Source: Escherichia phage vB_EcoM_WFbE185. From it: 64,000 nucleotides of DNA. Numbering within the stretch: the first letter of the stretch is position 1; the number at the start of each line of letters is the position of its first letter. The DNA is taken from sequence record MK373778.1. One strand, written 5' to 3'. Both the position numbers and the translations under genes were made by a program. The notes below the pieces were generated by a model that was given only the letters and a program-made list of their open reading frames with translations, was not told the DNA's origin and ran no database searches. This document shows positions 15,637 through 54,827 of this stretch, one piece after another.

Positions 15637-16086
15637 TTACCCCTTGTATCCGAGTTTTCTAAGACCATCTTCGGTTAGAACTCGAAATTTTATATTTCTC
15701 TTTTCTGCGACAGCAGAAGCAGCTTTCCATTTGTCGCAGTTCACAGACCAGGTGTATATTTCATTCATATAACGTTTCTTTGCTGCGGTAGTAAGATTTG
15801 CAGGCTTAATAGGTGGTTGAGTTTCTTTCTTTGGTTTTATTTCTACAAAGAACTCTTGACCTGATGCATCTTTCATCCATATGTCCATATAGTATCGACG
15901 TTTCTTACCTTCAGCATTACAAAAATATGGAATTACTGCTGTTTCACTACCCCATGCAATAATTTCCGGATTTTTATCCAACCATTCGAAAAAGAATTTT
16001 TCCCAGTTTGAACGATACGTTATTTTGGTATGGTCTCCACGGTATTTTTTTAAATTTTTTGGGACCCATTTACCAGAGTAGGCCAT
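15637..16086 (-). CDS. 4: gp4 head completion protein
   Basis: [11 protein letters not shown]... matches T4 gp4; ORF-track N-terminal extension to 16230 crosses the promoter region and is rejected. Confidence 0.9.
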
Positions 16087-16097
16087 GTTGTCCTCCT

Positions 16098-16105
16098 TAT
16101 AAATA
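16098..16105 (+). promoter_or_regulatory. late promoter TATAAATA for gene 53
   Basis: exact TATAAATA about 43 nt upstream of gene 53 start. Confidence 0.6.
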
Positions 16106-16112
16106 GTATTAT

Positions 16113-16120
16113 TATTTATA
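16113..16120 (-). promoter_or_regulatory. late promoter TATAAATA (minus strand) for gene 4
   Basis: TATTTATA on plus strand about 27 nt upstream of gp4 ATG. Confidence 0.55.
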
Positions 16121-16147: not shown

Positions 16148-16723
16148 TTGTTATTTACATTCTTCGACCCAATAGGATATAGTGCTAAAACAGTTAATAA
16201 GAATGCACCTACTATTCCTATGACAGACATATTTCGTAACTATAAAGAGTACTTTAAGCGTGTGGCTGCCAATTATAGATTACGTTCTTATTATATTAAA
16301 GGCTCTCCACGTCCTGAAGAACTAGCTAATATCATTTATGGCAACCCGCAATTATACTGGGTTCTTTTGATGTGCAACGATAACTACGACCCGTATTATG
16401 GTTGGATTACATCTCAGGAAGCAGCGTATCAAGCTTCTATTCAGAAATATGCAAATGCTGGTGGAGACCAAATTCTTTACCATATTAATGAGAACCGTGA
16501 GAAATTTTACAATTTAGTTTCATATCCAGACGAGCCTTTAGTGTGGTACGATAAAGGTGATGAAGCTCGTAAGTATCCGCAATATAAAGGACCTTTAGCT
16601 GCAGTAGATACTTATGAAGCGGCAGTATTAGATAACGAAAAACTTCGTAAAATAAAAATTGTTGCAAAAGAAGATATAAACTCGTTTATTACAGATTTGA
16701 TTCGTGAGATGGAGATTGCATAA
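16148..16723 (+). CDS. 53: gp53 baseplate wedge protein; TTG start codon
   Basis: MLFTFFDPIGY... matches T4 gp53; first codon reads ttg with AGGAG 6 nt upstream. Confidence 0.9.
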   Translation: MLFTFFDPIGYSAKTVNKNAPTIPMTDIFRNYKEYFKRVAANYRLRSYYIKGSPRPEELANIIYGNPQLYWVLLMCNDNYDPYYGWITSQEAAYQASIQKYANAGGDQILYHINENREKFYNLVSYPDEPLVWYDKGDEARKYPQYKGPLAAVDTYEAAVLDNEKLRKIKIVAKEDINSFITDLIREMEIA

Positions 16724-49533: not shown

Positions 49534-50202
49534 TTATTTTAATGTTACGAAAGAAGAATTACGAGTTTCACGAATTAGAACTGATCCATCGCGATTAATA
49601 TAATAAATTAAGCTAAATAATGTTTGGTGAGCAGAAGCGTGCACAAAACTGGTTGGGCGAGATTTCCAATCTGGGGTTTCGTCTATCCATTGATAAATCC
49701 ACCAAGGAACAGTAACATATCCTGGGCCTTTGCCTAATTTAATGAGTGTAGGACTAAAATTTTCAGGCAGAACAAATTTTACTTCTTTATTTACCTCTGG
49801 CTCAGGCTCTTTTTCAGATTCAACAACCTGAGTAATTGCTTCTTCGAATTTATCATGGTCGAATTCTTTTTCTTGTTCGACAACTTCTAATACTTCAACT
49901 TGTTCTGTTGGAGAATCAAACAACAGAATAGCTTCTTCTTTAACTTCTTCGTTGGTGAAATTAACACCGTCCACATCATCTGCGGCAGTAATTAAATCGG
50001 TGATAGATAATCCATCAGTTTCAGGTAATGGTTCATCAGCCAGTGCGTTAAGAGCTTCTTCGATATCAATAACAATATTATCGAATGATTTTGTTTTCTT
50101 AACACTAATGCCAAATTGTTCCGCATATTCAAACAGTTTAGCTTTGGCTTCCTTTTTATCAGAAAGAGCACGTAACTCTTCAATATAGTCTTTATCGATC
50201 AT
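49534..50202 (-). CDS. inh: inhibitor of prohead protease
   Basis: 222 aa, synteny. Confidence 0.8.
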   Translation of the reverse strand: MIDKDYIEELRALSDKKEAKAKLFEYAEQFGISVKKTKSFDNIVIDIEEALNALADEPLPETDGLSITDLITAADDVDGVNFTNEEVKEEAILLFDSPTEQVEVLEVVEQEKEFDHDKFEEAITQVVESEKEPEPEVNKEVKFVLPENFSPTLIKLGKGPGYVTVPWWIYQWIDETPDWKSRPTSFVHASAHQTLFSLIYYINRDGSVLIRETRNSSFVTLK

Positions 50203-50215
50203 GATATTTCCTCAT

Positions 50216-50223
50216 TATAAATA
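50216..50223 (+). promoter_or_regulatory. late promoter TATAAATA for uvsW
   Basis: exact octamer 30 nt upstream of uvsW ATG. Confidence 0.65.
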
Positions 50224-50252
50224 TAACTATATTTATTACATGGTAATTTGAC

Positions 50253-51767
50253 ATGACTGACATTAAAGTACATTTTCATGATTTTAGTCACGTGCGCATT
50301 GAATGCGACGAAAGTACGTTTTACGAACTTCGTGACTTTTTTAGCTTTGAAGCTGACGGGTATAAATTTAACCCAAAATATCGCTATGGGCAATGGGATG
50401 GTAGAATTCGACTTTTAGATTACAATCGTTTGTTACCATATGGACTTGTAGGACAAATAAAAAAGTTCTGTAACAATATGAGTTATTCTGTATGGATTGA
50501 CCATAAAATCTTTGAGACCGAAGACCTTACCAGGGAAGATTTTGACGCATGGCTTTCTAAACAAGAAATTTATTCAGGCAACGCCAAAATCGAACCGCAT
50601 TGGTATCAAAAAGATGCAGTATATGAAGGACTAGTTAATCGTCGTCGAATTTTAAACCTTCCGACATCAGCAGGTAAATCACTAATCCAAGCACTTTTAG
50701 CTCGGTATTATCTAGAGAACTATGAAGGTAAAATTCTCATTATCGTCCCTACAACAGCATTGACAACCCAGATGGCTAATGATTTTGTTGATTATCGCTT
50801 GTTTAGTCATTCGATGATTAAGAAAATTGGCGGTGGCGCTGATAAAGCGGACAAATCTAAAAATGACGCTCCAATTATTGTTGGCACATGGCAAACTGTA
50901 GTTAAGCAGCCTAAAGAATGGTTCTCTCAGTTCGGTATGATGATGAATGATGAATGCCACTTAGCAACAGGCAAAAGTATTTCTTCAATCATCTCAGGAT
51001 TAAATAATTGCATGTTTAAATTCGGTTTATCTGGCTCATTAAGAGACGGAAAAGCCAATGTAATGCAGTACGTAGGTATGTTCGGTGAAATCTTCCGTCC
51101 TGTTAGCACGTCTAAATTAATGGAAGATGGACAGGTAACTGAGCTTAAGATTAATAGTATTTTCCTTCGTTATCCGGACGAATTCACCACCAAATTAAAA
51201 GGTAAAACATACCAAGAAGAAGTTAAAATTATTACCGGACTAAAACGTCGTACAAAGTGGATTGCTCAACTTTCAGTAAAATTGGCTAAGAAAGACGAGA
51301 ACGCCTTTGTAATGTTTAAACACGTTACACACGGTAAAGAAATATTTGAAGCTATTAAAGAGCTTGGATACGAAAAAGTTTATTACGTATCAGGTGAAGT
51401 TGATACTGAAACACGTAACGCGCTTAAAGTCATGGCAGAAAATGGTAAAGGCATTATTATTGTTGCATCATATGGAGTATTCTCTACTGGTATTTCAGTC
51501 AAGAATCTTCATCATGTTATTTTTGCCCATGGTGTTAAATCAAAAATTATCGTACTTCAAACCGTAGGTCGCGTGCTTCGTAAGCATGGTTCTAAAGCTG
51601 TTGCTACAGTTTGGGATCTCATCGACGATGCAGGTGTAAAACCTAAATCATTAAATACTAAAAAGAAGTATACTCATCTTAATTACTTGTTAAAACACGG
51701 TATTGATCGTATCCAACGTTACGCTGATGAGAAATTTAACTATGTAATGAAAACAATTAATTTATAA
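50253..51767 (+). CDS. uvsW: UvsW DNA/RNA helicase (SF2)
   Basis: 504 aa; Walker A PTSAGKS, DECH box; near-identical to T4 UvsW. Confidence 0.97.
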   Translation: MTDIKVHFHDFSHVRIECDESTFYELRDFFSFEADGYKFNPKYRYGQWDGRIRLLDYNRLLPYGLVGQIKKFCNNMSYSVWIDHKIFETEDLTREDFDAWLSKQEIYSGNAKIEPHWYQKDAVYEGLVNRRRILNLPTSAGKSLIQALLARYYLENYEGKILIIVPTTALTTQMANDFVDYRLFSHSMIKKIGGGADKADKSKNDAPIIVGTWQTVVKQPKEWFSQFGMMMNDECHLATGKSISSIISGLNNCMFKFGLSGSLRDGKANVMQYVGMFGEIFRPVSTSKLMEDGQVTELKINSIFLRYPDEFTTKLKGKTYQEEVKIITGLKRRTKWIAQLSVKLAKKDENAFVMFKHVTHGKEIFEAIKELGYEKVYYVSGEVDTETRNALKVMAENGKGIIIVASYGVFSTGISVKNLHHVIFAHGVKSKIIVLQTVGRVLRKHGSKAVATVWDLIDDAGVKPKSLNTKKKYTHLNYLLKHGIDRIQRYADEKFNYVMKTINL

Positions 51768-53401: not shown

Positions 53402-54027
53402 TATAGTAACTCAAAGAATTCTTTGAGGCCTCGTATTGTGTGAACGTGTGATGCCCCACATTTGGGACATTTAATAGGGGTTGCCAGATAAATTGATGGC
53501 GATACCAAAAGATTTTTAATATTGATCATGTCATCTTCTGTTATAAGGCCGTAAAGGTCGTTTATTTCTGCTTCAGTTAAATCTTCAACAGGGATGGACT
53601 CTCCATTGACAAAAACGGCCTCAATACATGAAGCAATCATTAATGCGATATTTTTATCGTCAAATAATTTAGGTTGACGGAACTTAATTTTAATACCACT
53701 GAACGAATACCAGGGATCGGCCTGTTCATCTAATTGAGTGTGCAATAAATTCATATAGACTTGAAATGAATGCCCACAGGAACAATTCCAGGTGTGTTCT
53801 TGATTCACTTCACCTAATGAATGTGCCCACAGATTTACCAACAATAACTCGGCTTCTTGTTTAGTCAAGTTTTTAGCATTAGAGCAATTAGTGATAATAT
53901 TGTTCACTGCGGATTCAATAGTATCGGTAGCCCGCGCACCTATGAGTCCTAAATATTCTTTTAAAGTAAAGGCTCTACAATTCACTTCTTTATCGCCTAA
54001 ACGTACGGTAAACGTATATTTGTACAT
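53401..54027 (-). CDS. 26: gp26 baseplate hub protein
   Basis: 208 aa, synteny. Confidence 0.9.
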   Translation of the reverse strand: MYKYTFTVRLGDKEVNCRAFTLKEYLGLIGARATDTIESAVNNIITNCSNAKNLTKQEAELLLVNLWAHSLGEVNQEHTWNCSCGHSFQVYMNLLHTQLDEQADPWYSFSGIKIKFRQPKLFDDKNIALMIASCIEAVFVNGESIPVEDLTEAEINDLYGLITEDDMINIKNLLVSPSIYLATPIKCPKCGASHVHTIRGLKEFFELL

Positions 54028-54045
54028 GTTAACTCCTTTATTGTG

Positions 54046-54053
54046 TATTTATA
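54046..54053 (-). promoter_or_regulatory. late promoter TATAAATA (minus) for genes 26-25
   Basis: TATTTATA on plus strand, overlapping the plus-strand octamer. Confidence 0.6.
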
Positions 54054-54057
54054 AATA
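54050..54057 (+). promoter_or_regulatory. late promoter TATAAATA for gene 51
   Basis: exact octamer 18 nt upstream of ATG. Confidence 0.6.
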
Positions 54058-54074
54058 ATAGAAAAGGAGTAATT

Positions 54075-54827
54075 ATGGCTAATATAATTCGTTGTAAATT
54101 ACCGGATGGTGTTCATCGTTTTAAGCCGTTCACTGTGGCGGATTATAGAGACTTTTTACTAGTTAGAAATGATATCGAACATCGTTCGCCGCAAGAACAA
54201 AAAGAAATAATTGCCGATCTGATTGATGATTATTTTGGCGAGTACCCTAAAACATGGCAACCATTTATATTCCTGCAAGTTTTTGCAGGCTCTATAGGCA
54301 AAACAAAAGTTCCCGTTATTTTCACTTGCCCTAAATGCTCTAAAGAAAAAACTGCACCATTTGAGATATATCAAAAAGAACTAGTCGAACCTGAACTTGA
54401 TGTTGCTGGTATAAAAATACGTTTTTCTTTCCCTGAAAAGTTTTATGACAACAAGGCATTAATGATAAGTGAAAACATAAAAGAAATATATTATAATGAC
54501 AAATGGTACCCATGGAATGATTTGACTGAAGAGAACCAAATCCAAGTAATAGAAGCAATAGACATTGACTCGCTCGAGAAGGTTATTGCTTCTATGAACC
54601 CTATTAATTTGACCCTTAGATTAGGCTGTTGTGAACGACATGTTAAAACATATACTGATATCTTAGAGGTTTTTAAATTGTTAGTTAACCCTGATGAGAT
54701 TTTTACATTCTATCAGATAAACCATTCACTGGTAAAGAGTCAATACACATTGGATTCTATTATGCAAATGATTCCTGTTGAACGTGGTATTGCTTTAACA
54801 TTAGTAGAAAAGGACCATAAAAAATGA
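54075..54827 (+). CDS. 51: gp51 baseplate hub assembly protein
   Basis: 250 aa, synteny. Confidence 0.9.

Follow-up and report, generated by a model that had tools for sequence, protein, structure and literature searches.

A perfect 12-bp palindrome is located in the short gap between two divergently oriented baseplate-hub genes of Escherichia phage vB_EcoM_WFbE185, and the question raised by this locus is whether one such element directs late transcription in both directions and, if so, how the two directions influence each other. The analysis covered a 64,000-nt stretch of the phage DNA (MK373778.1), hereafter referred to as the window. The first-pass annotation had interpreted the palindrome as two overlapping, divergent T4-type late promoters which cannot be occupied independently, and had proposed that expression of the two hub operons is coupled in this way.

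The palindrome and its genetic context

The palindrome is embedded within a 47-bp gap between two divergent open reading frames (ORFs), both of which were assigned by comparison with phage RB69:

53401..54027, minus strand: gene 26 homologue, baseplate hub, 208 aa (RB69 annotation and homology; Pfam PF12322, E = 1.9e-60)
54075..54827, plus strand: gene 51 homologue, baseplate hub assembly protein, 250 aa (RB69 annotation and homology; Pfam PF12322, E = 1.7e-58)

In the RB69 annotation, gene 26 leads on to 25 and uvsY to one side of the junction, and gene 51 leads on to 27 to the other. A 1.4-kb region of the window shares 99.6% DNA identity with Mosigvirus mar005p1 and 98.6% with RB69, and the amino acid identity of gp51 to its counterparts in T2/T4-type Tequatroviruses is about 72%. 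Judged from these identities, the phage is an RB69-like Mosigvirus and not T4 itself, and the gene names 26 and 51 are therefore valid by orthology only. The products of the two genes can be aligned with each other over about 200 residues (BLASTP E = 9e-10, 24% identity), and the match of each to PF12322 spans the entire family profile; on this similarity, gp26 and gp51 are paralogues.

T4-type late promoters consist of an 8-bp TATA box placed approximately one helical turn upstream of the transcription start, with no -35 element (PMC2988020), and the box TATAAATA is positioned at -13 to -6 (PMC1524935). Homologues of gp55 are encoded in all sequenced T4-related genomes, and a structure of the RB69 clamp is cited in the same review (PMC2988020). 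Nucleotides 54046-54057 of the window read TATTTATAAATA, a sequence equal to its own reverse complement. A pattern search located the TATAAATA box on both strands of this 12-mer, offset by 4 nt, each copy being a perfect match to the late consensus; the central TATA, which constitutes the first four bases of each box, is common to both. Each box precedes, in the correct orientation, an orthologue of a late T4 gene (51 or 26), and would occupy about -13 to -6. Together with the positions of the ORFs, this search confirmed the basic observation of the first-pass annotation, i.e., a 12-mer carrying the box on both strands, with a 4-nt offset, between the minus-strand gene 26 and the plus-strand gene 51. 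The following elements were distinguished:

54046..54057, both strands: putative shared core of two late promoters, TATTTATAAATA (palindrome; the same 12-mer at the junction in T4, RB69 and 29 of 38 distinct relatives)
54050..54057, plus strand: TATAAATA box (-13 to -6), predicted promoter of gene 51 and downstream 27-28-29 (consensus match, RB69 prediction, SA35RD annotation)
54046..54053, minus strand: TATAAATA box (-13 to -6), predicted promoter of gene 26 and downstream gene 25 (consensus match, RB69 prediction, SA35RD annotation)

The exact 12-mer occurs once in the window, compared with 0.04 occurrences expected from dinucleotide-preserving shuffles (at least one copy in 4 of 100 shuffles), while the 8-mer TATAAATA occurs 19 times, compared with 8.6 +/- 2.6 expected, a count reached by none of the 100 shuffles. 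The tetranucleotide TATT, which extends each box upstream at the palindrome, directly precedes none of the 17 remaining TATAAATA sites of the window, so late promoters do not in general carry this extension. The plus-strand box at 54050-54057 is the only consensus box on that strand between 50216 and 58623, and the minus-strand box at 54046-54053 is the only one on its strand between 52282 and the window end; within the window, no further consensus box is placed to serve either operon. Because T4-type late promoters lack a -35 element, two of them can be fitted back to back in 12 bp, and a gap of 47 bp can drive two operons.

The distance from box to ATG is 17 nt for gene 51 and 18 nt for gene 26, and each ATG is preceded by AAAGGAG. 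These short distances would place the Shine-Dalgarno sequence at the extreme 5' end of both predicted messages, whose leaders open with AAAGGAG, followed by 5 nt and ATG:

54063, plus strand: predicted transcript start of gene 51, +/-2 nt, from the box at -13 to -6; leader of about 12 nt, AAAGGAGTAATT
54040, minus strand: predicted transcript start of gene 26, +/-2 nt, from the box at -13 to -6; leader of about 13 nt, TAAAGGAGTTAAC
54063..54077, plus strand: gene 51 translation initiation region, right arm of an inverted repeat (AAAGGAG, 5 nt, ATG)
54025..54039, minus strand: gene 26 translation initiation region, left arm of the inverted repeat (AAAGGAG, 5 nt, ATG)

For gene 26, an A at 54041 or 54039 is a likelier first nucleotide than the T at 54040. 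The distances of 17 and 18 nt are the shortest found among all 19 TATAAATA sites in the window; the other sites with a clear Shine-Dalgarno sequence and ATG (32 nt inspected) are located 26-29 nt from the ATG.

A scan of the region for sigma-70-type promoters produced 11 matches, compared with 6.4 +/- 2.8 expected, none of them centred on the palindrome. One such match, at 54059-54088 (TAGAAA, 18 nt, TATAAT; 10 of 12 consensus positions), overlaps the start of gene 51, and is probably due to chance, given the number of matches expected in the region.

The segment opened by the polymerase just downstream of a late box shows a preponderance of AT, for which the review of late transcription sets no quantitative threshold (PMC2988020). 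The 6 nt in question are ATAGAA on the gene 51 side (5 of 6 A/T) and CACAAT on the gene 26 side (4 of 6). Across 33 distinct loci the A/T fraction of these 6 nt is 0.79 on the gene 51 side vs. 0.66 on the gene 26 side (Wilcoxon p = 6e-4, a test that treats the 33 related loci as independent), and the gene 51 arm may thus open more easily, or the arms may differ in strength.

The palindrome can almost certainly be regarded as the core that two late promoters, facing opposite ways between the baseplate-hub genes, have in common. Two overlapping divergent promoters of the T4 late type, as proposed in the first-pass annotation, are well supported by sequence and position, as well as by the deep conservation and the existing annotations described below.

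Predicted occupancy of the two promoters

Late in infection, the host RNA polymerase, equipped with the sigma-like gp55 and the co-activator gp33 and activated by the gp45 sliding clamp, would open the DNA at either one box or the other. Transcription would start about 6 nt past the box, either rightwards near 54063, into 51-27-28-29, or leftwards near 54040, into 26-25. The predicted starts are about 23 bp apart, and a late open complex together with its clamp would cover roughly -50 to +20. Late open complexes are stable and site-specific, and the clamp extends their upstream end by about 13 bp, with contacts at -39 and -36/-35 (PMC2988020). Since position -39 of one promoter corresponds to approximately +17 of the other, both complexes would claim the same DNA and their simultaneous presence would be sterically impossible. 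Mutual steric exclusion at the 12-mer can soundly be inferred from this geometry: a template occupied by one polymerase would have no room for a second, and the site would be contested by the two directions.

Such exclusion implies competition, or alternate firing on each template, and not positive coupling. Of the inference made in the first-pass annotation, the lack of independent occupancy follows from the size of the late complex footprint; the coupling is better described as probable mutual exclusion, or competition, for a common site. Timing and an identical box quality are common to both arms.

Opposite transcription polarities need clamps of opposite orientation (PMC2988020). According to this rule, each direction at the 26/51 junction would need a clamp facing the opposite way, and the two directions, activated by oppositely oriented clamps, could in principle be fed independently. 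The explanation that best accounts for the palindrome, and which we consider highly probable, is that of a bidirectional late promoter module with competing, gp55/gp33/gp45-dependent arms.

The symmetry of the locus extends beyond the 12-mer. The start codon and Shine-Dalgarno regions of genes 26 and 51 form an inverted repeat with 15-nt arms (80% complementary), whose centre (54051) lies half a base from that of the palindrome (54051.5). The two paralogues, with their mirror-image ribosome-binding regions, may go back to an old inverted duplication. A more elaborate version of the competing-arms model takes the whole promoter-leader-gene unit to be a relic of such a duplication, kept as a toggle that is set by the orientation of the arriving gp45 clamp; the firing arm would then be determined, via clamp orientation, by the nicked strand or by the direction of the replication fork. 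We regard this proposal as rather unlikely. If true, the toggle would link the relative output of the two hub operons to the geometry of replication.

Conservation of the junction and alternative readings of the palindrome

The junction was compared in 13 annotated genomes and 52 IMG/VR contigs, the latter found via gp51 alignment. Slopekvirus (locus L015) and Pseudotevenvirus (L016) were left out of this comparison, since they have no divergent 26/51 junction: genes 51, 26 and 25 are co-directional there, behind a baseplate/tail-tube gene, and the palindrome is absent as well. The exact 12-mer is present in 29 of the 38 distinct upstream sequences. Nine genera carry it: Mosigvirus, Tequatrovirus, Karamvirus, Gelderlandvirus, Gaprivervirus, Kagamiyamavirus, Jiaodavirus, Hadassahvirus (whose carrier of the 12-mer is an Acinetobacter phage) and Muldoonvirus. 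It is kept down to 39% gp51 identity, in gaps of 45 to 65 bp whose remaining sequence changes. In an anchored profile, which was built from 12-mer-containing sequences (i.e., selected for the element and phylogenetically related), the information content is 1.7 bits at all 12 positions of the palindrome vs. 0.0-0.4 bits at the four positions on each side. If the late promoter worked in one direction only, conservation of the four bases upstream of its box would have no explanation, and both boxes are therefore taken to be under selection.

Several phages have variants of the element at the 26/51 junction, and these still retain two opposed boxes. Aeromonas phages (Tulanevirus as well as 44RR-like phages) carry a 10-bp palindrome, TATTTAAATA, that provides TTTAAATA on both strands; in 44RR, no promoters were called at this junction by the 2006 model (PMC1524935). 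In the IMG/VR contig UViG_2974770551 (L057; 46% gp51 identity), the palindrome is lost and the junction (1164-1186) contains TATAAATA-N7-TATTTATA, with the boxes face to face, which is the geometry of the gene 4/53 junction in the window. A further variant, L056, has CATTTATAAATA. Krischvirus (RB49-like) carries a non-palindromic 13-mer, TATTTTATAAATA, whose minus-strand box is imperfect.

The same TATTTTATAAATA recurs at another divergent junction of RB49, between an orf and gene 34 (L018, 966-1039), where it is located upstream of gene 34 and where promoters were called in both directions (144977/145030; PMC1524935). The late consensus of Aeh1 is CTAAATA (PMC1524935), and the divergent junction between gene 4 and the tail-tube cap gene of this phage (L017, 987-1038) contains TATTTAGCTAAATA, a palindrome of Aeh1's own consensus. 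The overlapping promoter pairs of RB49 (144977/145030) and Aeh1 (122785/122835) had been considered as candidates for the 26/51 junction, and were rejected on account of their placement at orf/gene 34 and gene 4/tail-tube cap, respectively. The palindrome in Aeh1, being built from that phage's own CTAAATA, indicates that the element tracks the promoter consensus of each phage and is not a fixed 12-mer, which argues against a separate protein-binding site as its main function.

These comparisons bear on three other readings of the palindrome. According to the first, only one box works, most plausibly that of the gene 51 side, the other TATAAATA being an AT-rich by-product and 26-25 being expressed from elsewhere. 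Given one box, a second needs only four more bases (TATT), expected at about 1% of sites with A and T frequencies of 0.31 each; the higher A/T content downstream of the gene 51 box (0.79 vs. 0.66) is compatible with arms of unequal strength, and not all of the listed late promoter sites have been proven active in vivo, as the review warns (PMC2988020). Yet the whole 12-mer is conserved in nine genera amid variable flanks, the variant geometries retain a second box, TATT accompanies none of the other 17 boxes, and upstream of gene 26 the window contains no other minus-strand consensus box. A single working box is therefore very unlikely.

The second reading, which we find highly improbable, is that the palindrome is maintained mainly as a site for a dimeric protein, with phage DsbA as the candidate, or as a structural element of the DNA, the promoter matches being secondary. 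Perfect palindromes are typical of dimeric-protein sites, and DsbA recognizes A/T-rich sites, those of low affinity overlapping two late promoters (PMC2988020). The single-stranded intergenic region also folds somewhat better than its shuffles (-5.3 kcal/mol, z = -2.7). However, this modest predicted fold is formed by the mirrored Shine-Dalgarno arms and not by the 12-mer, and a loop-free 12-bp A/T palindrome forms no stable hairpin; a DNA hairpin or cruciform as the main function was rejected on these grounds. The non-palindromic box pair of L057, the non-palindromic 13-mer of Krischvirus and the Aeh1 palindrome, which follows its own late consensus at a different junction, likewise speak against a protein site. 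Moreover, protein binding would be compatible with the promoters and could only add to them.

Finally, a functionless chance occurrence, for which the appearance of the 12-mer in a few shuffled sequences could be invoked, is effectively refuted by the conservation of the element across genera, and is also at odds with its exact placement between two divergent late genes and with the enrichment of the 8-mer.

Known counterparts and other divergent late junctions

The late promoter pair at the 26/51 junction is not new: it appears as a prediction in RB69 and as an annotation in sister phages, and it represents an ordinary arrangement. In RB69, two late promoters, Pl:118620 (plus strand, score 12.7) and Pl:118672 (minus strand, score 11.2), were predicted with a profile model, and both scores are in the upper half of those of the 31 RB69 sites (Nolan et al. 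2006, Additional file 5; PMC1524935). Both fall in the RB69 gap 118623-118669, whose sequence is identical to that of the window; The element of RB69, a phage with 98.6% genome identity, is thus the same one, with no difference of substance. In GenBank entry OL960577 (SA35RD, Mosigvirus), both 8-mers are annotated as promoters of the T4 late type, and in NC_055723 (fPS-90, Tequatrovirus) both are annotated as predicted late promoters; all the public annotations of the 26/51 promoters that we found are predictions.

At the orthologous site, phage T4 carries an identical TATTTATAAATA between the same divergent genes, in the same gene order as the window (uvsY-25-26 / 51-27-28-29), and its leaders are equally short and open with AAAGGAG. 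The intergenic region is 50 bp long in T4 and 47 bp in the window, and the spacers between box and Shine-Dalgarno sequence differ. Both T4 start sites were reportedly mapped by Scarlato, Storlazzi, Gargano and Cascino in 1989 (Virology 171:475), in a paper whose title is said to speak of overlapping promoters directing divergent transcription of a base plate gene cluster. Literature searches for genome-wide mapping of transcript starts in T4 or RB69 retrieved none.

The closest bacterial systems are bidirectional promoters generated by symmetric -10 elements, at which divergent starts are 7-25 bp apart, with 18 bp as the commonest spacing and a secondary peak at 23 bp (Warman et al., bioRxiv 10.1101/2020.01.31.928960). 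As in these promoters, the opposed -10 elements of the 26/51 junction overlap on opposite strands (sharing 4 bp) and the starts are a short fixed distance apart, the predicted separation of 23 bp (54040 and 54063) being one of the favoured bacterial spacings. The bacterial promoters depend on sigma-70 and the hexamer TATAAT, whereas the phage junction has an 8-bp gp55 box, no -35 element and a sliding-clamp activator. Reciprocal stimulation in the bacterial system occurs via a contact of sigma-70 R451 at -18, which has no known counterpart in gp55.

Two other divergent late junctions were found in the window, with the following ORFs beside them:

15637-16086, minus strand: gene 4 homologue
16148-16723, plus strand: gene 53 homologue
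49534-50202, minus strand: ORF to the left of the third opposed pair
50253-51767, plus strand: ORF to the right of the third opposed pair

At the gene 4/53 junction, a plus-strand TATAAATA (16098-16105) stands face to face with a minus-strand copy (16113-16120) across a 7-nt spacer, an arrangement expected to give about 5 nt of overlap between the 5' ends of the two transcripts. The third pair consists of TATAAATA on the plus strand at 50216-50223 and an A(-13) variant, AATAAATA, on the minus strand at 50230-50237, again face to face, with a 6-nt spacer. By their size and their position in the T4 gene order, we take the ORFs flanking the third pair to be the inh and uvsW homologues. The gene 4/53 pair matches the RB69 predictions Pl:80613 and Pl:80684, while for the third pair (50216-50237) only the plus-strand box was predicted in RB69 (PMC1524935).

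All three divergent late junctions of the window have interleaved boxes. Opposed late boxes within about 22 bp are found at gene 4/53 and inh/uvsW, as at 26/51, and also at the gene 4/tail-tube cap junction of Aeh1 and the orf/gene 34 junction of RB49. The geometry differs: the boxes of gene 4/53 and inh/uvsW are face to face with a spacer of 6-7 nt, which would lead to an overlap of a few nucleotides between the two transcripts, whereas the back-to-back boxes of 26/51 have 4 bp in common. The divergent junctions of the window would offer a tidy system for the study of promoter competition and clamp-orientation effects, but open no new question. For the T4 family as a whole, the comparative data indicate that the back-to-back design is under strong selection.
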